This document shows, in pieces, positions 1 through 51,905 of a stretch of DNA of 64,000 nt. The position numbers were made by a program, and so were the translations under genes. The notes under the pieces are model-generated. The model did no database searches. It was not told the DNA's origin and saw only the letters and a list, made by a program, of their open reading frames with translations. This DNA comes from Longimicrobiales bacterium (lineage in GTDB: Bacteria; Gemmatimonadota; Gemmatimonadetes; Longimicrobiales; Gaopeijiaceae). Location: positions 3,488,001-3,552,000 of the forward strand of contig OZ250165.1 in the NCBI GenBank assembly GCA_965238005.1. Direction: 5' to 3'. How positions within the stretch are numbered: position 1 is the first letter of the stretch; every line of letters starts with the position of its first letter.

Positions 1-138
1 CAGAGTGGTGATCCAGAACAGCCTCGGGTGGGAGAACGCCAGGCCGGTGAACAGAAGAAAGACGAAGGAAAGGCCAACGACCCAGTGCAAGACTCGCTCA
101 GCGTAGGTGAAGCGCTGAATCTCCCCCTGGGCGCTCAT
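1..138 (-). CDS. fdnI: Formate dehydrogenase gamma subunit (cytochrome b556), 5' part; runs off the window edge
   Basis: Hand translation from ATG at 138: MSAQGEIQRFTYAERVLHWVVGLSFVFLLFTGLAFSHPRLFWITTL (RF..ER..HW plus a TM helix). ATGA overlap with the fdnH stop. Not in the ORF track. Confidence 0.88.
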   Translation of the reverse strand, partial: MSAQGEIQRFTYAERVLHWVVGLSFVFLLFTGLAFSHPRLFWITTL

Positions 139-1130
139 GCGTCGCCTCCCACGTCACCTCCCACGCCGCGGCCATCTCCGTGGGCACCCGCTCCGGAGCC
201 CGACCCGACTCCCGATCCGGCCCCGGCGGGCTCGGCCGGCGGAACTCCCGGCCCGGAGTCGAGGTCGGCGTGCTCGGGCTCCGGCTCTTGAGGTCCGAAC
301 CCGAGATAGTGAAGGGCCGTGACAAGGAGCCCGATGCCCAGTGCCGAGGCGCCGAGCTGCCTGAGCCCCACGAGGGCGGCTAGCGCGCCGGGGCTCGCCG
401 TGGGATCCGCCGGCAGATCGTACTCGTCGAGCTGATCGCCGTGGGGCACCACGTACATCATGTGGGTCCCGCCCACACCCGCCGGATCATAGAGGGTGGC
501 GTGCTCGAAGCCACGGGCCTGCAGCCCCTCTACCTTCTTGGCCGCCAGCGCCTGCATGTCCTCCTTGGTCCCCCAAGAGATCGCGTCGGTTGGACACGTC
601 TTCACACACGCGGGCTCGAGGCCCGCTTCCACCCGGTCGACGCACATGTTGCACTTGTAGACCTTGCGGGTCGCCGGATTGAAGCGCGGGATGTCGAACG
701 GGCAGCCGGACACGCACATCTGACACCCGATGCACTGATCCTGATTGAAGTCGACGATCCCGTTCTCGTACTGGACGATGGCTCCGGGGGCGGGGCACGC
801 GTACAGGCACCCGGGCTCTTCGCAGTGGAGGCAGGCGTCCTTCTTGATGAGCCACTGGAGGTCGCCCCCCACCTCGATCTCGTTGAAGCGCATGAGGAGC
901 CAGGTGTCGGGCGACAGGTCCCGGTGGCTCTGCATGCTGCCGAAGTTCTCCGTGGGCTCCACTCCGAGCTCGTTCCACTCCTTGCACGCCACCTCGCAGC
1001 CCTTGCAGCCGATGCAGCGCGAGATGTCCACGAGCTTCGAGTACTCGGGACCCCGCCGGATTCCCGGCGCCGGATCGGGCGATGCGGAGATCCGCTTGAT
1101 GGCGAGACCGTTTTGCGGAAGCTGGGCCAT
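135..1130 (-). CDS. fdnH: Formate dehydrogenase beta (4Fe-4S) subunit
   Basis: CIGCKGCEVAC, CLHCEEPGC, CIGCQMC and CNMC..C motifs; C-terminal TM anchor; TGATG overlap with the fdnG stop. Confidence 0.93.
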   Translation of the reverse strand: MAQLPQNGLAIKRISASPDPAPGIRRGPEYSKLVDISRCIGCKGCEVACKEWNELGVEPTENFGSMQSHRDLSPDTWLLMRFNEIEVGGDLQWLIKKDACLHCEEPGCLYACPAPGAIVQYENGIVDFNQDQCIGCQMCVSGCPFDIPRFNPATRKVYKCNMCVDRVEAGLEPACVKTCPTDAISWGTKEDMQALAAKKVEGLQARGFEHATLYDPAGVGGTHMMYVVPHGDQLDEYDLPADPTASPGALAALVGLRQLGASALGIGLLVTALHYLGFGPQEPEPEHADLDSGPGVPPAEPAGAGSGVGSGSGAGAHGDGRGVGGDVGGDA

Positions 1131-4120
1131 CACACCTTCTCCAGATTCACGAGGAAGGCCTTGAACTCGGGGCAGCTGGTGTTCGCGTCACCGACGAAGG
1201 GCGTGAGGTTGTTGGCCATGGATCCGGTGGTGATCCCCTTGAATCCCCAGTGGACCGGAATGCCGACCGTCCAGCACTTCTTGCCGTTCACGGTCAGGGG
1301 CTTGATGCGCTTGGTGACCACGGCCACCCCCTCCACCTCCCCGCGCTTGGACCACACCCGGACCCGCCCTCCGTTCTCGATCCCCTTCTCGGCGGCGAGT
1401 CCTTCGGGCACCTCGACGAAGAAGTCGGGCATGAGCTCCACGAGGTACGGAACGTGTGACGTCACGAAGTGCTCCCGCTCCACGACCCGGTAGACGGTAC
1501 AGGCGTAGGGATACCCGTCGCTAGGCTTGGCCAGCGTCTCCCGCACCCCGTCGTACCAGCGGATGAGCGGGTTGGTGGGAACCTCTTCGTGGAGGATGTT
1601 GGGGGTGGGGCTCTCGACGGGTTCGTAGTGTTCGGAGAACGGCCCGTCCACCAGGTAGGTGGTGAAAAGCCGTGCGACGCCCTCCTCGGTCATGATGAAT
1701 GCGCCCGCCTGGTCGGGCGGGGTCGTCGGGCCGTAGTCCGGCACGTCGCCGATCCACTTGCGGCCAGTCCACCGGATGCCCGAGCGGTTCGAGTCCCAGG
1801 GCACCCCGTCCCCGTCGGCCGAGGCCCGGTTGTAGAGGACCCGCCGGTTCATGGGCCAGCTGAACGCCCAGTCGTGGTGGTAGCCCATCCCGCTGGGATC
1901 GTCGGTCCCCCGGCGGGCCATCATGTTTCCTTCCTCAGTGAAGCTCCCGGTGTAGAGCCAGTTGCCCGAGCTGGTGGTGCCGTCGTCCCGGAGTTGGCCG
2001 AACGACGACAGCAGCCGGCCTGTGCTCAGGTCGTAGCCGTTGATCTCCATGGCCAGCTCCTCGAGGATGGGCTCCCGTGGGTTCAGATAGTTCCACTGGA
2101 GGTTGAGCAGGGGCTCATGGTAGGCGCCGCCCTCCTCTTCATAGAGCTCCCTCACACGCCAGAAGAGCTCCGAGAGTATCCAGGTGTCCGAGCGCACTCC
2201 GTCGGGGGCTTCGATGGCCTGTTCCTTCCACTGGGCCCATCGGCCCGAGTTGGTGAAGGAGCCGCTCCGCTCCACCCAATGCGTCGCCGGAAGGTAGAGG
2301 ACCTCGGTGTCGATCTCGCTCGGATCCACGTCCGGGGCTCGCCAGAACTCGGCCGAGTCCAGCATGAACGGATCGATGACCACCTTCCACTTCAGATTCG
2401 CCATGGCCCGGAGGAGCCGCGGGACGTCGGGCCCAGCCAGCAGCGGGTTGAAGCCCAGAGCGACCAGCCCCTCGAGGCGGCCCTGGTGGGCCTGGTCCCA
2501 CATGGAGAGCCAGGTGGCGTCGTCGGCCGGCTTGCCCAGGTAGTGGTAGCCGAACTCGTTCTGGGGTCCCACCGCGTCGCCGAACCAGGCCTTGAGCTGG
2601 GAGACCAGGAAGCGGGGGTAGTTGCCCCAGTAGTTGACGGTGTCGGGGACCAGCGGGCGTGGCGTCGACTCGCGCAGGTGCGTGGCCAGCGACGACTGGC
2701 CGGGATTGGGCACGTGCAGATAGCCGGGAAGGATGCCGGCCACGATGGCGTGGTCCGTGGCTCCCTGGACGTTGGCGTGACCCCGGAGCGCGTTGATGCC
2801 CCCACCTGGTCGGCCGATGTTGCCGAGGATGAGCTGGAGGATGGCGGCGGTGCGGATGATCTGGCTCCCCACCGTGTGCATGGTCCAGCCCACCGCGTAC
2901 ATGATGGTCCCCACCCGGTCGGCCGTCCCGGTGGAGCAGACGATGTCCGCCATGGCGAGGAACTGCTCGGCGGAGCACCCGGCGATCTGCGCCACCACCT
3001 CCGGCGTGTAGCGGCTGTAGTGGCTCTTCAGGAGCTGGAAGACGCAGCGCGGGTGCTGGAGCGTCATGTCCCGGCGCACGAAGCCGTCGGCACCGCGCTC
3101 GTACTCCCAGGCCGTCCGGTCGTAGGCACCTTGGGCCTGGTCAAAGCCCGCGAAGAGCCCGTTCTCGAAGCCGTAGCCCTCCTCGATGAGGAAGGAGGCG
3201 TTGGTGTGGAGCCGGACGTAGTCCTCGTGGAAGAGGCCCTCGTCCAGCACCTTGTGGATCATCCCACCGAGGATCGCGATGTCCGAGCCCGGACGGATCT
3301 GGAGATGGTGGTCGGCCACAGCCGACGTGCGGGTGAAGCGCGGATCTACGGTGACGAGCTTAGCGCCCCGGTCGTCTCTGGCCTCCAGTGCCCACTTGAA
3401 CCCGCAGGGATGGTTCTCCGCGGGGTTGGCCCCCATGACCAGGACCACGTCCGTGTTCTTGATGTCCTTCCAATGGTTGGTCATGGCGCCCCGACCGAAC
3501 GTTGCGGCCAAACTGGCCACTGTGGGGCTGTGTCATATTCGGGCCTGATGATCGATGTAGACCAGGCCCATGGCGCGCATGGTCTTGGTGATGAGGTAGG
3601 CGTCCTCGTTGGCCACCGTGGCGCTGCCCACCCAGCCGATGCCCTCGCAGCGGTTGACCGTCCGGCCCTGCTCGTCCCGCTCCACGAAGGTGGCGTCTCG
3701 CGAGTCCTTGAACTTCCGGGCGAACCACTCCATGGCCCAGTCCCAGGTGACCTCGGTCCACTCCGACGCTCCCGCCGCCCGATGGCGGGGCCCCTTCTCG
3801 AGCCGGGGGCTCATGGCGAGCTGCATCTGGGCTGCGCCCTTGGGACACAACGTGCCGCCGTTGATGGGGCTGTCCGGATCGCCCTCCACGTGGATGATGG
3901 AGTTCACCGTGTTCAGGCCACCGCTCCCGTGCACGTATGCGATGGCCCCGCAGCCCACCGCGCAGTACGGGCACACGGTCTTGTACTCCCGTGCGTTGGA
4001 GATCTTGAGCTCACGGGAGGCAGCGTAGGCGGGCTTCAGGTCGAAGCCCAGGGTGCTGATGAGCGTGCCCCCTCCGGCGAGGGCGGAGAACTTGAGGAGG
4101 TCTCTCCGAGAGATGTCCAT
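1130..4120 (-). CDS. fdnG: Formate dehydrogenase-N type alpha subunit; Tat-exported molybdo/tungsto-selenoprotein (Sec UGA at 3535-3533)
   Basis: ORFs 3533-4240 and 1130-3520 are in one frame: HQARI-TGA-HSPTVASLAATFGRGAMTNHW. Tat signal MDISRRDLLK with a GGAGG RBS; CPYCAVGC Fe-S motif; ALRGHANVQG motif. Confidence 0.95.
3504..3535 (-). promoter_or_regulatory. Bacterial SECIS element of fdnG
   Basis: UGA, then 12 nt, then hairpin GUGGCCA-GUU-UGGCCGC. The loop G/U fall at positions 23/24 counting the U of UGA as 1, as in E. coli fdhF. Confidence 0.88.
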
Positions 4121-4507
4121 GGCCGGCGTCCTCCTCCCCACGTGCGTGGCGGGTCCGGGGCAGTGCTGTGGCGCTGGACTGATAATAGGGAGAGCGCGGG
4201 CCGCGCGCCAAACCTCCCGATTGGCGTTTCCCCTCCTCAAGCGTATTGTGTCCGCCGAAAACCCTCCGGCGCGACCGCCGAAGCGACCTGGAGCCCCTCA
4301 GGACGATCCTGCCGAGCTATTCGGAGCCACGCACCACGCCTGGTTCGGACGTAGGCCGGCGGGATGACCTGCGAGCCGCACACGGTGTGGGCTCTGCAAC
4401 GTCACCTAGTGCTGCACAAAGCTCTGCCCCGAGGGTATCACGATCACCGACAACGCCATCATTCCGCTCAAGGAGGGGTCGTTGTGGGACGTTCGAAGGA
4501 TTGATCT

Positions 4508-5011
4508 ATGGAATTCGAGCTGAAAGCCATCTCGCCGGACAGTATCGAGGCGGCGAAGGAGAAGGCGGTCCGATACCGGCTACTGAACGAGCCGGCCCTA
4601 GCCGAGAGTATCTGTCGCGACGTCCTGGCGGTCGCGCCCGACGATCGTGAGGCCGGGATCACCCTCCTCCTGGCCCTCACCGACCAGTTCACGTCTCCCA
4701 GGGGATCCCGGGTTCGTGAGGCGACCGAGCTCGTGGAGCACCTCGAGAGCGAGTACGACAGGCGCTACTACTCGGGCATGATCTGCGAGCGTCGAGGCCT
4801 GGCGTCCCTGACCCATGCGGGACCGGGCTCGGGGCCCATCGCCTACGACTGGCTGCGTAGGGCCATGGACCACTACGAGTCGGCCGACGACGTTGGGTCC
4901 GAAGGCAACGAGGAGGCGCTCCTGCGCTGGAACACGTGCGCCCGGGTGATCATGCGCGACCGCAACATCCGGCCTCTGCCGGATGAGCGGGTCAATACGA
5001 TGCTGGAGTAG
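4508..5011 (+). CDS. Hypothetical all-helical (TPR-like) protein
   Basis: 167-aa ORF with protein-like composition ([20 protein letters not shown]); divergent from fdnG. Confidence 0.7.
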
Positions 5012-5035
5012 CGCCCTCACGAGCGCACCCGTACA

Positions 5036-5428
5036 CTACGCTTCTCCTGCGCTCAGGTGCTGTAAATCGAACACCGCAGCGGCCGCCACGCCGCCCAGGA
5101 TAGGCCCCACCAATATAGATCCACAGGCTGGCCAGGGACCCGTCACCGGCGAAGGAATCGACGAGGATCGGGCCCGTTCCCACCGCCGGATTGAAGACGC
5201 CGCCCGAAACAGGTCCTACGGCGAAGGCGCCCACCATGACCGTGAATCCGATGGCGAGACCATAGAAGGAGTTACCGGCGGTGGCGTTGTCCGTGGCCAC
5301 GTTCAGGACGACGATGGCCAAAGCCGACCCGATTGCCAGAGGAGCGAAGGGCGTCCCGTCCAGCACCGTCAGGCCGATGGTGAGTACAGAAAGAAGGTTC
5401 CGATGGCTTCGGTCAGGTAACGGCTCAT
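5036..5428 (-). pseudogene. Aquaporin/MIP family pseudogene (internal deletion and two frameshifts)
   Basis: [14 protein letters not shown] shifts frame into [35 protein letters not shown]. Only one NPA motif; about 130 codons, roughly half an aquaporin. Confidence 0.85.
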
Positions 5429-5584
5429 GGTACGGATGCTCCATCCTTGAGGGGGTGTGCGAGTCTCCTCCGTCCCGGACACGGACTGCGCGGCGGGGAT
5501 CGAGTGGGCAGTTTGCGCGCCGGCCCGTTGCCCGGCAACCTTCGGCATGAAGCCATCGTCTGCAAGCCTAGCGCGGGTCTCAGC

Positions 5585-6736
5585 GTGCTCAAGTTCGGCG
5601 GCACGTCGCTCGCCGACGTCGCGCTCGTCAGGAGGGTCGCCGCCATCGTGGCGGCACAGTCTGCCAGCGGTCCCACCGTCGCGGTCGTATCCGCCTTCGG
5701 GGGTGTCACCGACGACCTGGCCGACGCCGCGGCCTGGGCCGAGCAAGGCGATGCCCGCTCCGCCGAGAAGCTGGAGCAGATCAGGGAGCGTCACCGAGAC
5801 GGCGCCGCGGAGCTGGTGTCGGAGGGCGAGCTAGTCGCCGTGACCGAGGCCGTGGAGGCGCTCCTGGACCGGCTGGAGGAGCTTCTTCAGGGCATTTCCC
5901 TCGTCAAGGAGTGCAGTCCGCGCACCAGGGACAGCGTCCTCAGCATCGGCGAGCGCCTCTCGTCGATCCTCGTGGCAGCGGCCCTCAGGGTCCAGGGGAC
6001 GGACGCCGCACCGTGCGACGCGGCGAACCTCATACTGACGGATGCGAACTTCGGGCGTGCATGGGTGGACATGGAGGCGAGCCGCTCCCGGGTACTAGAG
6101 CACTCGGTCGGGGCAGGTATTCCCGTTCTGCGGACCATCGAGGACCTGGTCTCCACCGGCGACACCATCCAGAGCATCGAGGGGGTCCTCTCAGGCACCT
6201 TGAGCTTCATCTGCGACCGCCTCATGGTGGGCACGCCCTTCAGCGCGGCCCTGCGGGAGGCCGACGAACGCGGCTTCACCGAGCCCGACCCCCGGGAAGA
6301 CCTGGGCGGCCGGGACGTGGCGCGGAAGCTCGTGATCCTGGGGCGCATGGCGGGCTTCTCGCTGGAGATGGACGACGTGGAGGTAGAGCCGCTCCTCCCG
6401 GACGCGCCGTGGGTGACGGGGCCGCTGGAGGCCTTCTGGGAGAAGCTCCCCGAGGTGGACGCGGAGTTCGACGAGCGCCGCGCGGCCGCGGTGGCCGACG
6501 ACACGGCACTCGTCTACCTGGCCTCGGTGGAGGACGGCCGAGCCACCGTGCGCATGACGGGCGTGCCGGCCGACCACGCCTGCAGCGGACTCTCCATCAG
6601 TGAGAACCTGATAGCCATCACCTCCCGCCGTTATGCGGAAACGCCGCTGGCGGTACGGGGTCCCGGCGCCGGTCCGGAGGTGACGGCGGCCGGAGTGTTC
6701 GCTGACGTCCTCCGGGCTCTGGCGGAATCGTCATGA
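5585..6736 (+). pseudogene. thrA: Bifunctional aspartokinase/homoserine dehydrogenase with a large in-frame internal deletion
   Basis: VLKFGGTS and VVSAFGGVTD (AK N-terminus) join at about 6100 directly to VGAGIPV..IEGVLSGTL..TEPDPREDLGGRDVARKL..GPGAGPEVTA (HSDH C-terminus). The true start is uncertain; the frame is open from 5447. Confidence 0.85.
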
Positions 6737-7683
6737 GCGACGCGACCCAGGTCCGAGCCTTCGCGCCGGCCACCGTGGGAAACGTCCTGTGCGGTTTCGA
6801 CGTCTTCGGCTTGGCCCTCGAGCGCCCCGGCGACGTGGTCGAGGCCCGGCGGCGCTCCGCGCCTGGGGTGGCGATTACGGCGATCCACGGGGACGGGGGG
6901 CGGCTTCCCACCGATCCGGACCACAACGTCGTGGGCGTGGCCGCGGTAGCCGTGATCGAGGCGGCGGGATTGGAGGGGGTGGGAGTCGAGCTCGAGGTGT
7001 GGAAGGGCCTGCCCCTGGCGGGCGGGATGGGAGGCAGCGCCGCTAGCTCGGTGGCGGCCGTGGTGGCCACGAACGCCCTCCTCGGCGCCGGGCTGAGCAA
7101 GGAGGACCAGCTGCTCTGCACGCTGGAGGGGGAGCGGCGGGCCGCCGGAGTCACCCACTCGGACAACAGCGCCCCTTCCCTTCACGGAGGCATCGTCATG
7201 GTGCGGCCCGAGCGGCCCGGTGTGGCCATCCCGCTCCCCGTGCCGGACGGCCTCTCGGTAGCGCTGGTCCACCCTCCCTTGGAGCTGGAGACGGAGGCGA
7301 TGCGGCAATCTCTCCCAAAGGAGGTGCCCCTCGAGCGGGCTATAGCCCAGTGGGCCAACTGCGCCGCCCTCGTCGTTGGTCTGTACGAGGAGGACTGGGA
7401 GCTCGTGGGCCGAGCGCTGGTGGATGAGATCGCGGCGCCACACCGGACCCCCCACGTGCCCGGATTCAGTGAGGTCTGCTCCGCGGCCCTGGAGGCGGGC
7501 GCGGTGGGCGCGGGCCTGTCCGGATCCGGCCCTTCTATATTCGCGCTCGGTCGGAGCATCGGCGATGCCACCGCCGCCGCGGACGCCATGACGCACGCCT
7601 TCTCGCAGGTGGGGCTGGACGGCGCCGACCGCTATGTATCCCTGGTGGGGAGTGGTGCACGCGTCGTCGAGGACCTCCCTTGA
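6733..7683 (+). CDS. thrB: Homoserine kinase
   Basis: APATVGNV.CGFDVFG; GHMP motif PLAGGMGGSAAS; SGSGPS; ATGA-coupled to thrA. Confidence 0.95.
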   Translation: MSDATQVRAFAPATVGNVLCGFDVFGLALERPGDVVEARRRSAPGVAITAIHGDGGRLPTDPDHNVVGVAAVAVIEAAGLEGVGVELEVWKGLPLAGGMGGSAASSVAAVVATNALLGAGLSKEDQLLCTLEGERRAAGVTHSDNSAPSLHGGIVMVRPERPGVAIPLPVPDGLSVALVHPPLELETEAMRQSLPKEVPLERAIAQWANCAALVVGLYEEDWELVGRALVDEIAAPHRTPHVPGFSEVCSAALEAGAVGAGLSGSGPSIFALGRSIGDATAAADAMTHAFSQVGLDGADRYVSLVGSGARVVEDLP

Positions 7684-8975
7684 GGCTCCTGAGCACCAAC
7701 GGACGAGCTCCCGCCACCGACCTGGGAACCGCGCTGCTGGAAGGACTCGCGCCCGACGGCGGCCTTTACCTGCCCGAACGGTTCACACCCATAGCGGACG
7801 GGACGCTTAAGGGCCTGCGGGGCCGGTCCTTCTCGGAAGTAGCGAGGGAGGTGGCGCGCCACCTCATGGGGGCCGAAATCGCCCCGTCCGACGTGGACGC
7901 TCTGGTGGAGTCGGCGCTGGACTTCCCCGTGCCCCTCGTGGAGCTGGAGCCGGACGTCTACGTCCTCGAACTCTTCCACGGACCGACCTTGGCCTTCAAG
8001 GACGTGGGAGCTCGCTTCATGGCGAGACTCCTAAGGCATGTCCGAGAGGAAGGCGAAGAGGCGCTCACGGTCCTGGTGGCCACGTCCGGCGACACAGGCA
8101 GCGCGGTGGCCCACGCGTTCCTCGACGCGGCAGGCGTCCGGACCGTCGTCCTCTTTCCTAGCGGAAAGGTCAGCGCGCTACAGGAGCGGCAGTTCACAAC
8201 CCTGGGCGGCAACGTCCGCGCCCTTGAAGTCGACGGCACCTTCGACGATTGCCAGCGGCTGGTGAAAGACGCATTCGCGGACGAGGAGCTCAGGGCTCAG
8301 GTTCGCCTCACCTCGGCCAACTCCATCAATGTCGGCCGTCTTCTTCCGCAGATCTTCTACTACGTCCACGCGTGGGCCCAACTCCCGAAGGGGCTTCCTC
8401 CCGTCTTCTCCGTCCCGTCCGGCAACTTCGGGAACCTCACGGGCGGGCTCATCGCGAAGAGGCTGGGGCTCCCGACCCGCGGGTTCGTGGCGGCCACGAA
8501 CGTGAACGACACGGTGCCCGAATACCTATGTACCGGGGTGGTAAGGCCCCGGGCCTCCGTACAGACGATATCGAACGCCATGGACGTAGGAGACCCGAGC
8601 AACCTGGCTCGCATCCTTGCGCTCTACGACGACGACCTGAGCCGCCTCAGCGCCCACGTGGTGGGAAGCGTTCACGACGATCACGAGACCCGGCGGGCGA
8701 TCCGTGAGGTCTTCGAGGTGACGGGCTACGTGCTGGATCCCCACTCGGCCGTGGGCTACCTGGGTCTGGAGGCGGGCCGGGTGGCCTTCGGAGACGGGCC
8801 CTCAGTGTCTCTGGCCACGGCCCACCCGGCGAAATTTCGGGAAGCGGTAGAAGCAGAGATCGGAGCACCCGTACCCGTGCCCGACCGGCTATCCGCCTGC
8901 TTGAAGGCGGAGCGTCACGTCACTCCGATGGGGGCACGACTCGCGGAGCTTCGGGAGCTGCTGCTGGAGGGATGA
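7680..8975 (+). CDS. thrC: Threonine synthase
   Basis: GLAPDGGLY, ELFHGPTLAFKD (PLP lysine), ATSGDTG, SANSIN, VPSGNFGN, TAHPAKF. Confidence 0.96.
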   Translation: MRLLSTNGRAPATDLGTALLEGLAPDGGLYLPERFTPIADGTLKGLRGRSFSEVAREVARHLMGAEIAPSDVDALVESALDFPVPLVELEPDVYVLELFHGPTLAFKDVGARFMARLLRHVREEGEEALTVLVATSGDTGSAVAHAFLDAAGVRTVVLFPSGKVSALQERQFTTLGGNVRALEVDGTFDDCQRLVKDAFADEELRAQVRLTSANSINVGRLLPQIFYYVHAWAQLPKGLPPVFSVPSGNFGNLTGGLIAKRLGLPTRGFVAATNVNDTVPEYLCTGVVRPRASVQTISNAMDVGDPSNLARILALYDDDLSRLSAHVVGSVHDDHETRRAIREVFEVTGYVLDPHSAVGYLGLEAGRVAFGDGPSVSLATAHPAKFREAVEAEIGAPVPVPDRLSACLKAERHVTPMGARLAELRELLLEG

Positions 8976-8980
8976 GCTGC

Positions 8981-9469
8981 TTATCGTCCCGTCGGTGCAT
9001 CAGGCCACAGCGGGAGAGCCCTCATGGTATTCCGATCCGGGGTGAGCTCCGCGGTCCCAGGCGGATATCCGTTGAGTTCGAGAATGTAGGCGACGATGTC
9101 GGTGTAGGTCTGAGCGGGCAGGCCTCCCGGATTATCGTCGGGCATGCTGTACGCGATGTTCCCGTACAGGTCCCGGACCGTCCGACCGCGCCACTGGCGC
9201 TCGAAGGCAGAGCCACGGAACTCGCTGGATGCGTGGCACGAGAGGCAGGTCTCTCTGAAGAAGCCCTCGCCTCGGGCCGCCTGATCGGCGGAGTAGTACC
9301 CGGGGAGGGCCGGGGGGGCTGCATCCGCTTCGGGGCTCATGTCCGCAGTGGTGGACGTCAATGGTCCGGGAGCGCTGGTGACGGTCCCCTCCGGGGTCGT
9401 GCCACAGCCGGAGAGTGCGAGCGCCGCCAGCATCGCCCAGGGCTCTATCAACCCCTTCAATCCCTTCAT
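8981..9469 (-). CDS. Monoheme cytochrome c lipoprotein
   Basis: Lipobox LSGC; heme motif CLSCH; distal Met in MPDDNPGGL. Confidence 0.85.
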   Translation of the reverse strand: MKGLKGLIEPWAMLAALALSGCGTTPEGTVTSAPGPLTSTTADMSPEADAAPPALPGYYSADQAARGEGFFRETCLSCHASSEFRGSAFERQWRGRTVRDLYGNIAYSMPDDNPGGLPAQTYTDIVAYILELNGYPPGTAELTPDRNTMRALPLWPDAPTGR

Positions 9470-9613
9470 GAACGTCCTTTTCAACGAGTCCCCAGACGTC
9501 ATGCCTACCACGGGTGGGGGCAAGGGTCCCTAGCTGACACACACGACAGCGTCAACGTTGAGGATCGACACCAACTGCCCGAGCACCGATGCCCACCGCT
9601 GAGGAAGACGGCA

Positions 9614-10069
9614 CTAAAGATCCGGCGGCACGCACCAGGTCAACTCCCATCTCCCTTCGCCACCCTCGAGGCAAACGATGCCGGCGTTGGTGAAGCGGAC
9701 GGGAGTCGCCTCAGGCGAGCCGGTCAGCAGAAATGCGGCTAGGCGGGCGAGGAACGGCAGGTGCCCCACGAGCATGACGGTGTCGTCCTCGCCGCCCAGC
9801 GCTTCGGCCACAGGCCGGACGTCGTCCAGGGGGGCCAATCCCGGCGCCACCTTCACCCCGAGCGCGGGCTGAAGGTGGTCGCCCAGGATCTCGGCCGTCT
9901 CGGCGGCTCTCCGCTTGCCACTGTGGCGGATCTCGTCGACTCCGAGACCCCGCTCCGCGGCCCAGGCTCCCATGCGGGAAACGGTGTCGGCCCCGTCGGG
10001 GCGGAGGGGTCTGTCGGGATCCTCGTCCTTCGACATGGCCACGCCGTGTTGAACGAGAAGAAGCCTCAT
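9614..10069 (-). CDS. sixA: Phosphohistidine phosphatase SixA
   Basis: LLLVQHG, DRPL, HSGKRRAAETA and VMLVGHLP motifs. Confidence 0.9.
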   Translation of the reverse strand: MRLLLVQHGVAMSKDEDPDRPLRPDGADTVSRMGAWAAERGLGVDEIRHSGKRRAAETAEILGDHLQPALGVKVAPGLAPLDDVRPVAEALGGEDDTVMLVGHLPFLARLAAFLLTGSPEATPVRFTNAGIVCLEGGEGRWELTWCVPPDL

Positions 10070-10483
10070 TCAGCCTTGCACGGGGGCGTCGAGGTTCCAG
10101 CAATCCGTGGCCAGACGCCAGCGGCCCCCCTCCTTGCGGTAGGTGGCCAACCACTTGCCCACCATCCGGGCCTCACCCTCATCCGTCTCCACAGTCATGT
10201 CGAACGCGTCTCGTAGCTCCGCATGGTCGGCGCGCCCGTCGGCGCCGTCGATGCTGGTTCTGAACCGGGTCATGGTCGGAAACGCCTCAAGAAAGTGGGC
10301 CACCGCCGTTTTGCCTATGACCGTCGGCTCGTCTGGAGGCAAGAAGACGACGTCATCCGTCAGCCGCTCCACCAGCGCGTCCCAGTCCCGGTCGAGGCAA
10401 TGACTGACCCACTCGTCGATATACGCCTCGAGAGCGTCCCTGTCCCCAGACGACAAGCCGATGGGTTGAGGTTGCACACTCAT
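10070..10483 (-). CDS. YybH/DUF4440 NTF2-like (SnoaL-fold) protein
   Basis: DWDALVERLTDDVVFLPP...GKWLATYRKEGGRWRL; GGAGGA RBS before the ATG at 10483. Confidence 0.8.
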   Translation of the reverse strand: MSVQPQPIGLSSGDRDALEAYIDEWVSHCLDRDWDALVERLTDDVVFLPPDEPTVIGKTAVAHFLEAFPTMTRFRTSIDGADGRADHAELRDAFDMTVETDEGEARMVGKWLATYRKEGGRWRLATDCWNLDAPVQG

Positions 10484-10790
10484 GATGTCCTCCTGATCGT
10501 GGGTTCCACATGGATCAACCGTGCCGGCCGAAATCCCTCTGCACGGAGGGTACTGCGGGGGTAGAGCGAGAACGGACTCAACGTAGAGACCGGTCCAGGG
10601 CGGAGCAACGTTTGGCCTACTTTGGCCATCCAATAGTCGGACCTCGGAAATCCGCGTCGGCATTCGGTGTGGAGGTCCCGAAACCGAAGGGATTCCGTTA
10701 ACGTATCAACCGTAGGATTTGCTGCGAGGCTTCTGCACCGAAGAGGAGTGGAGAGGCCTCGTTTTTCAGTAACCATTAGACGGGGAAACT

Positions 10791-13157
10791 GTGAGGGTTC
10801 TAAACGTGATATGGACAGCGGTGGCCGTGAGCGTCTTGATGGCCACGCCTCTCGCCGGCCAGGGCTACGGACAGTCCGTAGCCGTTGGGGATGGTGAAGT
10901 GATCGTCGGGGAGTCGTTGAACAAGATGGCCCCCGGATACGTGTATGTGTACCGGAAGGACGTCGGTGGAGAATGGACCGAGGTCCAGCGCCTCGAGGCT
11001 TCCAACTCGGCCAACGGCGACCACTTCGGCCGCTCTCTCGCCCAGACCGGGAACCACCTCCTGGTGGGCTCGACGACCCTCGAGACGGTCTACGTCTTCG
11101 AGAACGACGCGAGCGGCGCCTGGCGGGAGACCCAGAAGTTGCAGGCAAGCGACGGCACCGACGGTGACTACATCGGACGGCTCGCCGCCGTGGGCGGTGA
11201 CAACGTCCTCATGGCCACCTGGGCCCATGCCGAAGGCCGAGGCGCGGTGTACGTCTTCCACCGCGACAACTCCACCGGTCGCTGGAGCGAATCCGCCAAG
11301 CTCATGGGGAGCGACATCGAGCCCAACGATTGGTTCGGGATGTCGCTGGCCATCGAAGGCGATGTGGCGCTGATCGGCTCACCCCGGAAGGACGGCAATA
11401 CCGGCGCCGTGTACGTCTTCCGCCTCGAAGAGACGGGCGCGTGGACGGAGCAGGCCAAGCTGACGGGGGCGGGCACCGCCCCAAACAGCCGCTTCGGCTC
11501 GTCGGTGGCCCTGAGGGCCGGTCGCGCGTTCATCGGCGCGGCCACCCATCAGCAGGGTGTGGGAACGGCCTTCGCGTACACCTTCGATGAGGACTCGGGT
11601 GAGTGGGAGCCGGGACCGACGCTGAAGCCGTTCGACGGCGGAACGCCGGGCACGCAGTTCGGGGCCTCCGTCTATTACGGCGAGGACGAGGTGTGGATCG
11701 GCGCCCCCGGAGCGTCCGGCTTCGAGGGTCGGATCTACGCCATGACCCAGGACGCCACCGGCGAGTGGACGAACGCCACGAAGATGTCAGCGGGCGAGCT
11801 CAACGGGGGCGATCAGTTCGGTGGCACGTTCGCCGTCAGCGGCGACGTTGCCGTGGTCGGCGTCGTCGGAGACGACTATGGCTTGGGCACGGCCACGATC
11901 TTCGAGCGGACCGATGACGGATGGTCCGAGGCCGCGAACGTTTTCAGCGAGCCCGTCGGCTTGGAGGCCGTCACGGGAGATCAGGTGGATTGCTCGGAAG
12001 GCACCGCAACCCTCTTCGACTGCAGCGACATCGACATGCTCTCCTTCGTCCCCGTCCAGGATTTGGGTGGGGGACGGGGCGTTCAGGTGAACGACCTCTG
12101 GGGCTGGACCGACCCGGAGTCGCGTCGGGAGTACGCCCTGGTCGGCCGCTACGACGGCACATCGTTCGTCGACGTGAGCGACCCCTCCAACCCCCGGTAC
12201 CTCGGGAATCTGCCTTTGACGGAAGGGGCCCAGGGCAACTCCTGGAGAGACATCAAGGTCTTCGACAATCACGCCTTCATCGTCGCCGACGGCGCCGGGC
12301 AGCACGGCATGCAGGTCTTCGACCTGACGAAGCTCAGGAACGTGAACGACCCGCCCGTGACGTTCGAGGAAGACGCCCATTACAGCCGCCTCGCGAGCGC
12401 CCACAACATCGTCATCAACGAGGACACCGGCTTCGCCTACGCGGTGGGAGTCAACTCGGGCGGCGAGACGTGTGGTGGTGGTCTCCACATGATCAACATC
12501 CAGGATCCGCTGACGCCTATCTTCGCGGGGTGCTTCCAGGATCTGTCGACGGGGAGACGGAGCACCGGGTACAGCCACGATGCGCAGTGCATCACCTACC
12601 AAGGGCCCGATGAGGAGCATCGGGGACAGGAGATCTGCCTCGGGGCCAACGAGACGGCGCTGAGCATCGCCGACGTGACGGACAAGGCAGCCCCGGTTGC
12701 ACTGTCCAAGGCCACCTACCCCAACGTCGGGTACACGCATCAGGGCTGGATCGATGAGGAGCACGAGTACTTCTACATGAACGACGAGCTCGACGAGATC
12801 GGCGGTGGCGTCGAGCAGACCAGAACTCTCGTGTGGGACATCAAGGATTTGGACGACCCGATCCTGGTCAAGGAATACTTCGCCGACAACACCTCGTCGG
12901 ACCACAACCTCTACATCCGCGGTGACCTCATGTATCAGTCCAACTACGTGAGCGGACTGCGGATCTTGGATATCTCGGATCGCGAGAACCCCGAGCTCGT
13001 GGGATTCTTCGACACGGTCCCGTGGTCGCCCGACGCCCCCGGATTCGACGGATCGTGGAGCAACTATCCGTACTTCGGGAGCGGTATCATCGTGGTGAAC
13101 AGTGGGACCGAGGGGATGTTCATCCTGCGCAAGCGGGAGCGGAACCTGATCCCATGA
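10791..13157 (+). CDS. Choice-of-anchor B family secreted protein with N-terminal FG-GAP-like repeats
   Basis: Signal peptide; repeated D.FG.S.A / GAVYVF units; NDLWGWTDP, WRDIKV, SAHNI, YTHQGW, NDELDE, DHNLY, WSNYPYF. Confidence 0.88.
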   Translation: MRVLNVIWTAVAVSVLMATPLAGQGYGQSVAVGDGEVIVGESLNKMAPGYVYVYRKDVGGEWTEVQRLEASNSANGDHFGRSLAQTGNHLLVGSTTLETVYVFENDASGAWRETQKLQASDGTDGDYIGRLAAVGGDNVLMATWAHAEGRGAVYVFHRDNSTGRWSESAKLMGSDIEPNDWFGMSLAIEGDVALIGSPRKDGNTGAVYVFRLEETGAWTEQAKLTGAGTAPNSRFGSSVALRAGRAFIGAATHQQGVGTAFAYTFDEDSGEWEPGPTLKPFDGGTPGTQFGASVYYGEDEVWIGAPGASGFEGRIYAMTQDATGEWTNATKMSAGELNGGDQFGGTFAVSGDVAVVGVVGDDYGLGTATIFERTDDGWSEAANVFSEPVGLEAVTGDQVDCSEGTATLFDCSDIDMLSFVPVQDLGGGRGVQVNDLWGWTDPESRREYALVGRYDGTSFVDVSDPSNPRYLGNLPLTEGAQGNSWRDIKVFDNHAFIVADGAGQHGMQVFDLTKLRNVNDPPVTFEEDAHYSRLASAHNIVINEDTGFAYAVGVNSGGETCGGGLHMINIQDPLTPIFAGCFQDLSTGRRSTGYSHDAQCITYQGPDEEHRGQEICLGANETALSIADVTDKAAPVALSKATYPNVGYTHQGWIDEEHEYFYMNDELDEIGGGVEQTRTLVWDIKDLDDPILVKEYFADNTSSDHNLYIRGDLMYQSNYVSGLRILDISDRENPELVGFFDTVPWSPDAPGFDGSWSNYPYFGSGIIVVNSGTEGMFILRKRERNLIP

Positions 13158-13222
13158 ACTACTCCATGTGAACGACTAAGCCGCGCTGCATGGATGCCTG
13201 TCCCTGCGAGGCTCTCCTCGGC

Positions 13223-13750
13223 TCACTTCGCATTGGCGAGAGCCTCGATGATCTCGTCGACGACGCCGTCCGCTTTTTCACGCATCTCGTCATCCGTGGC
13301 ATCTTGAATCGGGTGTGGAACTTGGATGTGTTTGGCTTCCGGCAAGCCGAGGGCCTCGGCCTGTACCGTGGCCGCGCCCGTGAACTCTGCCGAGGTCACG
13401 GCCACAGCCGGAACACCCTGAATCTCGAACCATACCGTGTCGTGCAAACTGCACGTTGTGCATGAGCCTCAGTCGGCGAGGGCTTCGATTACGAAGCCGC
13501 AGTCCTCTGCGATCCGGCGTCTCAGGTCTTCAGGCGCGGGCCGCGCGAACGTCCGTTTTCGGTAGCGCTTGAACTCCACTCCGGGTAACCGCTCGCGCAG
13601 GACTGCCTCCAACCGGTCGATGAACACGTCCCCCCGGGGCTTCGAGATGTCCAAAAGCGCCACGCGACCGCTGATGACGTCCGGGCGATGAGTCAGCTCG
13701 CGCCGGATCGGGGTTTGCTCGCTCGTGGGATCCAAAATCTGCGTCGTCAT
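13223..13750 (-). CDS. UGSC-motif selenoprotein, 175 aa (Sec UGA at 13471-13469)
   Basis: The two split ORFs are in one frame: ...VIEALAD-TGA-GSCTTCSLHDTVWFE... A SECIS hairpin follows the UGA. ATG at 13750 lies just after the upstream gene's stop. Confidence 0.9.
13440..13471 (-). promoter_or_regulatory. SECIS element of the UGSC selenoprotein gene
   Basis: UGA, then 13 nt, then perfect stem CGUGCA-GUU-UGCACG, in the same register as the fdnG SECIS. Confidence 0.85.
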
Positions 13751-13752
13751 TG

Positions 13753-15267
13753 TCAATCCCCGATCTTGCGACTCGTGGGCGTGGAGCCGAGTTCTCGCAC
13801 CCATCCCTCGAACACCACCGTGAACTTCCCCGCTTCGCCTCCGGCCACGACTACGTGGACGTACTCGGGCCCGGGGAACTTGGGCGTCGCGAGGTCCGGA
13901 TGTCCCAGCCCGGAGGAGGTGGCCGACTGTATCGCCTCGCGCAGGTCGTCCTTCGTCCATCCGTCGCGGTGGAGCGTGTCCACATGCTCCGGGCTCACCA
14001 CCACCAGCACGTCACCCCGCGCCTTGGCGCGGGGATCTTGGATCCCCTGCACGACCAGCGCGATGCTGGTTGCGAGGGACTCCGCCGTGCGGGACTTATG
14101 GTCGACCACCAGAGACGGCCCCCCGCTAAGCGCGTAGACGGTGACCACCGAATCATCGGGTAGGAACCCGCGCTCCACATGCAGGGGCGCCCACGGGCTC
14201 CGCTCCTCCCATTCGGCGAACGCGAGCGTGAACTTGGACGGCGACCCGAACGTCGAGCGTTCCGTGCCGCCGGGCTTGGCGCCACCGACGTTGCGCAGCA
14301 CGAGCCGAAGGGCCCGACCGATCGTCGCGTTGGCGCGTGTACCTTGCCCGAGACATCCGAGTCCCATGTTGATGCCCAAGCGGTGGCGGATCGGCCCGTT
14401 GACCACCACCACGGGCGTAGCACCCATGGTCGTCGCCATGACGCCGTGAATGTTGAACTCGTCCGTACACACCGCTTCGATCGAAGCGATCACCACAGGC
14501 ATGTACTCGGGTCGACAGCCGGCCATGACGGCGTTTATGGCGATCTTTTCGACCGTCAGAGGCGCCATGTTCGGGGGCACCGTGGCTACCACGTCCTGCG
14601 GGTGGCGCTGCGTCCCGGACAGCATGCGCAGGACCCGCTCCGGCGTCGGAGGAACCACCGGAAGTCCATCCGTCAGATCCTGATCGAACAGAAACTCCAT
14701 GACGTCGTCACCGTCCGCGATGTCGACTCGCCGGGCCTGGAGCGGACTTTCCGCCGCATCCGCGCTGAGACGCTCGTAAACACCCGGCTCCATCGAGCGC
14801 GACCCGCATCCCGGCCGGGATGCGGGATACGTGCCCCAGTCGAGCGTGAGTGGATCGCGATCACTCAGGGACGCGAGCCGGTCAACCAGACCCCGCCAGT
14901 CGTCCCGAACGAATCCCCACCACCGGCCGAGCTCGTCGCCACGACCATCGGCCAGGATCATCGTCGGTACGGTCTCGATTCCGTACCTCCAGGACACGCT
15001 CAGCGAAGAGTCGTCCACCACGGGCATCGAGGTCCCGTAGTCCTCGAGGAGCGAACGGCTTCCCTTCGGGTCCTGGCCCACGGCCCAGACGTCGATGGAG
15101 TCCCCGAAGGATTCGTGAATCCGCAAGAGTAACGGCATCGAGAGCTCACAGGTGGGACAATCACGTTTGACGAAGCACAAGATCGTGGGTCGCCCGGTAG
15201 GGAATGAACGCTCCGACCCCGAACCGTCGGAAAGCCGGAATTCAGGAAGATTCGTCCCTGTAGCCAT
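13753..15267 (-). CDS. Redoxin (TlpA/AhpC-like, CPTC) domain fused to a DGLPVVPPT-type domain; UGSC partner protein
   Basis: N-terminal thioredoxin fold FVKRDCPTC...VPT; PGCGS linker; DGLPVVPPTPERV, TVEKIAINAVMAGC, RANATIGRALRL. The start codon is uncertain. Confidence 0.8.
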   Translation of the reverse strand: MATGTNLPEFRLSDGSGSERSFPTGRPTILCFVKRDCPTCELSMPLLLRIHESFGDSIDVWAVGQDPKGSRSLLEDYGTSMPVVDDSSLSVSWRYGIETVPTMILADGRGDELGRWWGFVRDDWRGLVDRLASLSDRDPLTLDWGTYPASRPGCGSRSMEPGVYERLSADAAESPLQARRVDIADGDDVMEFLFDQDLTDGLPVVPPTPERVLRMLSGTQRHPQDVVATVPPNMAPLTVEKIAINAVMAGCRPEYMPVVIASIEAVCTDEFNIHGVMATTMGATPVVVVNGPIRHRLGINMGLGCLGQGTRANATIGRALRLVLRNVGGAKPGGTERSTFGSPSKFTLAFAEWEERSPWAPLHVERGFLPDDSVVTVYALSGGPSLVVDHKSRTAESLATSIALVVQGIQDPRAKARGDVLVVVSPEHVDTLHRDGWTKDDLREAIQSATSSGLGHPDLATPKFPGPEYVHVVVAGGEAGKFTVVFEGWVRELGSTPTSRKIGD

Positions 15268-15385
15268 GAAGTCATCTACCCTCGTTCCCAAAGTCATGTC
15301 AACCGCCGTGCTCCGCGAAAACCTCATCCGCCTTGCCGGGGTTGACGTTTCGGCCTCCGCCACCGGACCGTGGGATCATGATCTC

Positions 15386-19235: not shown

Positions 19236-19358
19236 GAGTTCATCTTTCGGTGAACCTTGGTTCCCGCAGGACTTGGCACCGTTCCGAGGGCTGCGTAATC
19301 CCCCGAAGGTTGCCCCGGCGTCGTAGGGCCTGCCCCTCAGCCGGTCTCGATGATGACC
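19236..19358 (-). ncRNA. SAM-I (S-box) riboswitch
   Basis: Minus strand reads UCAUC-GAGA-CCGGC-UGAGGGGCAGGCCCU-ACGA-CGCCGG-GGCAACC...ACGGUGCCAAGUCCUGC...GAAA-GAUGA; about 100 nt upstream of the met operon. Confidence 0.92.
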
Positions 19359-50819: not shown

Positions 50820-51905
50820 ATGAGTAGTGAGCGATCGGGGATCGATCGGCGGGATTTCTTCCGCCACAGCGTGGGGATAGGGGCGGGGGCCATGGCTCTC
50901 GGCCGCCTGCCCGAGGGTCTCGCCCGCCCGAGGAGCGGGGCCGCCGGCACCCCCCTCATCATCACGAGCCACTCCAACGAGACGGGACAGGAAGCCATGC
51001 GTCAGGCATGGGAGATCTTGAACGGCGGCGGCACGGCCCTCGATGCCGTGGAGCGCGGCGCCAACGTCATCGAGGTGGATCCGGAGGACTCGAGCGTCGG
51101 CTATGGTGGTCTTCCGAACGAGGACGGAGTCGTCCAGCTCGACGCGTCCATCATGGATGGCAAGACCTACAGCGCCGGCTCCGTAGCTTCTCTGGAGAAC
51201 ATTAAGACGCCCGCCTCGGTGGCTCGCCTCGTCATGGAGCGCACAGACCACATCATGCTCGTCGGCGAAGGTGCTTTGGAGTTCGCCCGTTCATTCGGGT
51301 TCGAGGAGGTGGACCTCATGACCGAGAAGTCGCGGGAGCGGTGGCTCCGCTGGCGGGAGAACCACAGCGACCGGGACGACTGGGGACCGCCCGACCACCT
51401 CCGACGGCCCATCGGAGAGGAGATGGGGAGCTGGGAAGAGAAGGTCGACTTCCACTACGGCACGACCAACGTCCTGGCCGTGGACTCGAACGGAGACGTC
51501 TCCGGCATCACGACTACGAGCGGGCTGAGCTGGAAGGTCGATGGACGCATCGGCGACTCCCCCGTCATCGGGGCCGGTCTGTACGTCGACAATGACATCG
51601 GGGCCGCAGGCGCCACCGGTCGTGGCGAGGACGTCATCAAGTGCTGCGCTTCGTACTACATCGTCATGCGCATGGGCCAGGGATGCTCGCCCGAGCAGGC
51701 GTGCGAAGACGCGTGCGAGCTCATCGTACACAAATACCGGAACGTGAACCCGAGCTTCTTCCCGTCGGAGAAGTTCGTTGCCATCAACAGGGACGGGGAG
51801 TACGGCGCAGCCTCGATGGGCAATAACCGGGGCCGTCCCAAGATGACCGTGCGGCACCCGCAGGGGCAGGAGATCTACGAGGGCAGTACGCACTACACCG
51901 GGTGA
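50820..51905 (+). CDS. Tat-signal N(4)-(beta-N-acetylglucosaminyl)-L-asparaginase family (Ntn hydrolase)
   Basis: DRRDFFR signal; SVGYGGLP, LDASIMDG, G-T cleavage site, GRIGDSPVIGAG. Confidence 0.88.
   Translation: MSSERSGIDRRDFFRHSVGIGAGAMALGRLPEGLARPRSGAAGTPLIITSHSNETGQEAMRQAWEILNGGGTALDAVERGANVIEVDPEDSSVGYGGLPNEDGVVQLDASIMDGKTYSAGSVASLENIKTPASVARLVMERTDHIMLVGEGALEFARSFGFEEVDLMTEKSRERWLRWRENHSDRDDWGPPDHLRRPIGEEMGSWEEKVDFHYGTTNVLAVDSNGDVSGITTTSGLSWKVDGRIGDSPVIGAGLYVDNDIGAAGATGRGEDVIKCCASYYIVMRMGQGCSPEQACEDACELIVHKYRNVNPSFFPSEKFVAINRDGEYGAASMGNNRGRPKMTVRHPQGQEIYEGSTHYTG

Follow-up and report, generated by a model that had tools for sequence, protein, structure and literature searches.

The window analysed here is a stretch of 64,000 nucleotides (nt) from a Longimicrobiales bacterium (contig OZ250165.1, positions 3,488,001 to 3,552,000). 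Two genes on its minus strand, fdnG and a member of the UGSC family, each contain an in-frame UGA at a selenocysteine (Sec) position, followed by a hairpin with the features of a Sec insertion sequence (SECIS) (Table 1). The fdnG start was placed at the Met ahead of the twin-arginine signal MDISRRDLLKF, and the product matches the NCBIfam equivalog TIGR01553 over residues 42-1035 with 1344 bits (curated cut-off 814.2). The product of the second gene scores 159.1 bits against the NCBIfam equivalog NF041046 (curated cut-off 125). Both genes would be annotated as truncated or split unless the UGA is read as Sec.

An earlier, sequence-only reading of the window claimed that both genes share the pattern UGA-N8-CACA-N5-CAGUUUG, and the sequences are exactly as described. 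On the minus strand, fdnG positions 3535-3504 read TGACACAGCCCCACAGTGGCCAGTTTGGCCGC, in codons UGA CAC AGC CCC ACA GUG GCC AGU UUG GCC GC, and positions 13471-13440 of the UGSC gene read TGAGGCTCATGCACAACGTGCAGTTTGCACGA, in codons UGA GGC UCA UGC ACA ACG UGC AGU UUG CAC GA. The full pattern occurs twice in the window, against no match in 100 shuffles, and the fdnG and UGSC copies are its only matches in the whole genome (4,839,169 bases, 64.8% G+C). The shorter form TGA-N17-CAGTTTG has three matches in the genome, among 154 CAGTTTG sites. The third, at genome position 1787213, was rejected for its implausible reading frame. Counts in 689 long open reading frames (ORFs) also bear out the claimed scarcity of the codons involved: ACA makes up 5.4% of Thr, AGT 5.2% of Ser and TTG 7.6% of Leu codons, Leu being encoded mostly by CUG and CUC.

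Positions within the elements are counted here from the U of UGA; the + numbers of the sequence-only reading were counted from the first base after it. RNAfold places a helix from G16-C32 to A22-U26 in fdnG and from C17-G31 to A22-U26 in the UGSC element, both closed by the loop G23 U24 U25. In both elements the upper helix begins about 11-13 nt after the UGA, and the apical loop contains G23 and U24. These two bases had been recognised as the SelB-contacting positions known from E. coli, and they stand in the same register in E. coli fdnG. The UGSC copy was also correctly described as lacking a bulged U, position 17 being part of the C17-G31 pair. The fdnG element aligns with the Rfam model RF01989 SECIS_3 over its full length, with 54.5 bits (E 1.3e-10 over 11 kb).

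The hairpins are conserved among relatives. The TGA of fdnG is retained in every orthologue examined. The UGSC gene is present in 4 of 60 relatives, all with TGA, and in 44 of 401 genomes of the phylum, where each of the 44 carries one TGA. Among 30 UGSC loci that were read, four contain CGUGCAGUUUGCACG and 26 contain C(G/A)UGCGGUCUGCA(C/U)G. The fdnG-type genes, which share the motif VASL, contain CCAGUUUGG in ten genomes and the loop AGUCU in one (G063); one further fdnG-type genome, G456, surfaced in the pattern scan described below. Two other formate dehydrogenase (FDH) groups of the order carry GUCGCC-GGUCU-GGCGGC and GUCCCC-GGUCU-GGGGAC.

In an alignment of 20 distinct FDH and UGSC SECIS from the order, the invariant bases are U1 G2 A3 (the UGA), C21, G23, U24, U26 and G27. 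The helix 16-22/26-32 is paired in 98.6% of the 140 cells and four of its seven pairs are changed on both sides, while slid controls pair at 30-50% and no shuffle out of 500 attains the covariation score. The helix is kept by compensatory changes across FDH and UGSC orthologues, as in the change from G18-C30 to C18-G30 in fdnG of genome G022 and from G18-C30 to A18-U30 among UGSC genes. The sequence-only reading had already spoken of covarying stem pairs on the basis of the two window elements. The pairs it listed are correct (+14/+28 U-G vs C-G, +16/+26 G-C vs U-A and +17/+25 C-G vs G-C), but a difference between two non-homologous hairpins is not phylogenetic covariation, which only the comparison of orthologues revealed. 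The CACA block, by contrast with the helix, is a Thr codon preceded by C, with a variable third base, and lies outside the signal: the codon at positions 13-15 is ACA, ACG or ACU in fdnG-type genes and ACA, ACG or GUA in UGSC genes.

In this genome, no more than about 9 kb separates fdnG from the UGSC gene. A SECIS could have been copied from one to the other through gene conversion or recombination, or a single transferred segment could have brought in both genes. We regard this as extremely unlikely. The identity between the elements is confined to 7 + 4 bases and four helix pairs differ, and across the phylum each element is retained by members of its own gene family. The genes in between are threonine-biosynthesis and other housekeeping genes on the opposite strand, and in genome G011 fdnG and the UGSC gene are about 550 kb apart. 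The two genes are separate units and not one.

The genome encodes a complete Sec machinery, comprising tRNA-Sec (anticodon tca), selB (327.6 bits), selD (370.9 bits) and selA (555.9 bits); selD itself has an in-frame TGA. We screened the whole genome for further selenoprotein genes among 43,668 in-frame TGA sites with open frames on both sides. The 311 sites where the TGA frame had the best coding score on both sides were kept, and their translations were then read. In 13 further genes, one Pfam domain spans an in-frame TGA at a catalytic Cys site: selD, three DUF3179 genes, two OsmC, two CMD/AhpD, a glutaredoxin (Grx), an AhpC/TSA peroxiredoxin (Prx), a redoxin-TPR gene and two Methyltransf_31 genes. 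The genome is thereby predicted to carry at least 15 selenoprotein genes, and such richness is of some interest for the phylum. Several of them form paralogue sets whose members share the codon position of the TGA, which speaks against pseudogenes. Among the SECIS loops, no fewer than three types can be told apart (RGUNU, GGA-type and CGGGA-type), and those of the 13 further genes begin 18 to 30 nt from the U of UGA.

Table 1 Features of the two selenoprotein loci, their neighbours and the other predicted selenoprotein genes. Coordinates are those of the window unless marked as genome (G000) positions; loop positions are counted from the U of UGA.
Feature	Position	Strand	Basis or loop
fdnG, formate dehydrogenase-N alpha subunit, selenoprotein	1130..4120	-	translation; TIGR01553
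Sec codon UGA of fdnG (ARI-U-HSPTVASL)	3533..3535	-	in frame at U position
fdnG SECIS upper helix and loop, positions 16-32	3504..3520; G23/U24 at 3513-3512	-	GUGGCCA-GUU-UGGCCGC; fold, covariation
Full-length match of fdnG element to Rfam RF01989 SECIS_3	3480..3538	-	model positions 1-59 of 59
UGSC-family selenoprotein gene	13223..13750, start approximate	-	translation; NF041046
Sec codon UGA of UGSC gene (ALAD-U-GSCTTCSLHD)	13469..13471	-	in frame at U position
UGSC SECIS upper helix and loop, positions 17-31	13441..13455; G23/U24 at 13449-13448	-	CGUGCA-GUU-UGCACG; fold, orthologues, covariation
fdnH-like 4Fe-4S subunit, directly downstream of fdnG	135..1133	-	Fer4_11 and other 4Fe-4S domains
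536-aa ORF with AhpC/TSA domain, directly upstream of UGSC gene	13753..15363	-	domain match
13 further genes, outside the window (selD = 578551+)	genome 578551+, 296274-, 1111092-, 3212601+, 4721260-, 3999067-, 2420275-, 2121131-, 4353883-, 1349100+, 1630105+, 3644359-, 1138568+	as marked
DUF3179a, b	position 26		loop GUA
DUF3179c	positions 25-29		loop GGUCU
OsmC, two genes	position 30		loop GGA
Grx	position 24		loop GGA
One methyltransferase	position 21		loop GGA
AhpD, two genes	positions 20 and 28		loop CGGGA(A)
Redoxin-TPR	position 27		loop CGGGU
Prx	position 25		loop CGUGAUCA
selD	18 or 37		loop CAUGU at 18, or GUC at 37

In selD, the Sec-UGA is followed by two adjacent hairpins (genome 578551-578610, +), either of which is a candidate SECIS. 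The first, AGCUCGG-CAUGU-CCGAGCU, has its GU at 21-22; the second, GGCGCAG-GUC-CUGCGUC, has its GU at 37-38 and a GCAGGUC core resembling that of E. coli fdhF.

The inventory bears directly on the proposal of the sequence-only reading that CAGUUUG, placed at a set distance behind UGA, constitutes a SECIS consensus peculiar to the lineage and can serve as a genome-wide search pattern. Both genome matches of the full pattern are true Sec sites, the heptamer uses codons rare in the genome, and it persists in the fdnG of 10 genomes and the UGSC gene of 5 genomes across the phylum, although protein identity is 48-53%. Nevertheless, none of the 13 other selenoprotein genes carries TGA-N17-CAGTTTG. 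The pattern is thus missing from 13 of 15 genes, an outcome that the reading itself had named as counting against it.

Relaxing the rule does not help. A helix of at least 5 base pairs (bp) with an RGUNU loop is found in 309 hairpins of the genome and recovers 4 of the 15 selenoprotein genes. A TGA lies 17-33 nt upstream in 54 of these hairpins, evenly spread with 1-10 per position, and the only ones behind a coding-consistent TGA belong to fdnG, the UGSC gene and two DUF3179 genes. Seven other candidates under this rule were translated and look non-coding. We also built a covariance model (R1) from the 20 FDH and UGSC SECIS. Genome-wide, its only hits below E=1 are fdnG with 49.4 bits and the UGSC gene with 39.8 bits. 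Run with filters off on the loci of the 13 other genes, it finds DUF3179c alone, weakly, with 13.8 bits (E 0.038), giving a recovery of 2 of 15 genes genome-wide and 3 of 15 with filters off.

The same holds among relatives. TGA-N17-CAGTTTG was found 103 times in 71 family genomes, compared with 58 times for the reversed control, and fdnG or UGSC copies account for nine of the 103. No new selenoprotein was found among the 30 matches that were examined, where a helix and long open frames occur together only in fdnG of G022. That genome has AGUUU in fdnG and GGUCU in UGSC, and GGUCU is also the loop of 28 UGSC genes and of all other FDH groups of the phylum. A lineage consensus is therefore very unlikely. 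The scan of the whole genome and of 30 of the 103 family matches yields nothing beyond fdnG and UGSC, and a geometry that matches Rfam SECIS_3 and E. coli fdnG does not bear out a lineage-specific SECIS. Rather than being a genome-wide signature, the element is confined to FDH and UGSC genes and, in approximate form, DUF3179. A narrow SECIS pattern drawn from two genes fails to generalise even inside one genome, in line with published descriptions of bacterial SECIS as too varied to be captured by one motif.

With high confidence, we assign the fdnG and UGSC elements to the canonical bacterial SECIS of the E. coli fdhF/fdnG type. This assignment draws on direct observation of the sequence, the fold, the covariation, the family membership, the presence of the machinery and the absence of the pattern elsewhere. 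In the E. coli system, SelB-GTP-Sec-tRNA(Sec) binds the loop and delivers Sec to the UGA. In the window genes, a helix of 6-7 bp at about positions 16-32 would present G23 and U24 in a small apical loop, through which SelB carrying Sec-tRNA(Sec) would bind. The helix would position SelB correctly relative to a UGA that occupies the A site and lies about 11-13 nt upstream. The unrelated fdnG and UGSC genes would share one register because of this spacing requirement of SelB, and as it is the canonical E. coli register, it points to no peculiarity of the lineage. CAGUUUG consists of the invariant C21-G27 closing pair, the invariant G23, U24 and U26, and the variant loop AGUUU. The rare codons AGU and UUG would likewise reflect the RNA requirement of the hairpin: the Ser codon must be AGU because G23 and U24 are needed, and the Leu codon must end in G so that C21 and G27 can pair. 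The same SelB must also recognise no fewer than ten further SECIS that differ in loop and spacing. Evidently, one SelB serves at least three loop types, with spacings that differ by more than 10 nt.

Several points weigh against this assignment. The fold energies are no better than those of shuffles (z -0.36 for fdnG and -1.08 for UGSC). The fdnG element falls short of the SECIS_3 gathering score of 63, and for the UGSC element no Rfam model gives a hit at E up to 10. Neither element has the bulged U17 with which E. coli SelB makes contact: U17 of fdnG forms a U17-G31 wobble within the helix and no bulge, and C17-G31 is found in 35 of 35 UGSC rows of the screen described below. The inventory of 15 genes comes from a coding-potential screen and Pfam, and may miss genes or include a pseudogene. 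Finally, we infer SelB binding and UGA read-through at both hairpins only by analogy.

A further question is whether A22 and U25 are under selection at the RNA level at all. A screen that demanded an in-frame TGA, G23/U24 and a helix of 5 bp or more was passed by 82 rows, in which a few loci are represented twice. The loop pentamer is GGUCU in 64 of them, AGUUU in 17 and AGUCU in 1, with no other form; position 17 is invariably U in the 47 FDH rows and C in the UGSC rows. GGUCU is the usual loop of FDH and UGSC genes in the phylum, and AGUUU is a variant.

Beyond G23/U24, the shared heptamer may reflect coincidence and amino-acid constraint, with no selection on A22 or U25 in the RNA. Ser-Leu is encoded at codons +7 and +8 of both genes, and the CACA block is clearly unconserved. 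The in-register identity is just 15 of 29 bases, compared to 8.8 +/- 2.5 for random coding pairs, about 0.5% of which reach 16. This identity ranks top among the non-paralogous pairs of the 15 SECIS, yet it is not extreme. There are about 100 such pairs. The loop AGUCU of E. coli fdnG and of phylum member G063 also fits this explanation. The choice of Leu codon does not: UUG is a minor codon in a genome dominated by CUG and CUC, yet it is the codon after AGU in 10 of the 11 genomes with fdnG-type genes and in 5 of 5 genomes with AGU-type UGSC genes, while CUG follows GGU in 64 of 64 rows. This distribution points to some RNA-level preference linking positions 22 and 25. We consider coincidence with amino-acid constraint possible, if rather unlikely.

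A converse proposal is that the register-23 loops of the phylum exist in essentially two forms, GGUCU and AGUUU, in which positions 22 and 25 appear to switch together from G/C to A/U in both fdnG and UGSC and would be functionally coupled. Such coupling might arise from a 22:25 cross-loop pair that leaves G23/U24 flipped out, or from a preference of SelB. The independent events behind the link are few, about two. The cross-loop pair is weakened by AGUAU in DUF3179a and b and by AGUCU in E. coli fdnG, SECIS_3 and G063, all of which fit a 22:26 pair. We think such coupling improbable; if true, it would be undescribed for this lineage. The elements are real but ordinary, and the pattern is no useful search tool. 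The finding matters little beyond the annotation of genes from two known selenoprotein families.

The window contains further features. The UGSC gene begins right where the 536-aa AhpC/TSA ORF ends, both on the minus strand, which suggests a co-transcribed thiol-redox pair. A SAM riboswitch (RF00162) lies at window positions 19237-19356 (-) and scores 71.3 bits, above the gathering score. At window position 51903 (+; genome 3539903), an in-frame TGA has a strong coding signal over 362 codons upstream and 98 downstream. It is most likely the junction of two adjacent genes in the same frame.

Elsewhere in the genome (G000), an in-frame TGA lies within a Pfam domain in five genes (1701956-, 2618414-, 1767506-, 3773940+ and 4262051-), at a position that is not known to be Cys in the families concerned. 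Trp would be expected at the TGA of a molybdopterin oxidoreductase, of an MsrP-like protein and of a sigma-54 activator lid (D-x-PGNVRELEN), and Arg at that of an Old Yellow Enzyme (QLWHVG-x-ISH); the fifth gene encodes an ABC ATPase. These five are probably pseudogenes or sequencing errors, and three TGA-for-Trp cases within one genome are noteworthy. A multi-copy element of at least five copies (G000: 2804251+, 4826480-, 510637+, 999381- and 667739-) consists of a frame of about 170 aa (..TWGVTLREI.GERFVVLP..AVKLSRE), an in-frame TGA and a coiled-coil-like frame of about 60-80 aa (RSYMTELERQLT..). It probably represents two adjacent ORFs of an insertion sequence.

Compared with its family (NF041046), the window UGSC gene is alike in the UxxC motif (ALAD-U-GSC) and in scoring over the curated cut-off, and shows nothing unusual. 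The window clade has Ser-Leu (AGU UUG) at codons +7/+8, most of the phylum Gly-Leu (GGU CUG). The UGSC-containing family is well known and is described as among the most abundant selenoprotein families of ocean metagenomes, with 255 Sec and 21 Cys forms (PMC2398784).

Both window elements resemble the SECIS of E. coli fdnG and fdhF in lying within the coding region right after the Sec-UGA, with an upper helix at about nt 15-32. In its RefSeq record, E. coli fdnG reads A22 G23 U24 C25 U26, in a register identical to that of the window elements. The loop is thus AGUCU in E. coli fdnG and SECIS_3 and AGUUU in the window, and the SECIS_3 consensus CAGUCUG differs from CAGUUUG by one base. The loop of E. 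coli fdhF is GGUC. The E. coli type has a bulged U17, in place of which the window fdnG has a U-G wobble and the UGSC gene the C17-G31 pair. One review gives the E. coli upper stem-loop as 17 nt long (nt 15-31), 11 nt from the UGA, with the fixed bases U17, G23 and U24 (PMC8659212). More generally, a bacterial SECIS is characterised as a hairpin that follows the UGA and has a G within its small apical loop (PMC1088965). All 15 sites of the genome fit the loose description of the general bacterial consensus, the bSECISearch model of Zhang and Gladyshev, of which the pattern of the sequence-only reading is a far narrower subset.

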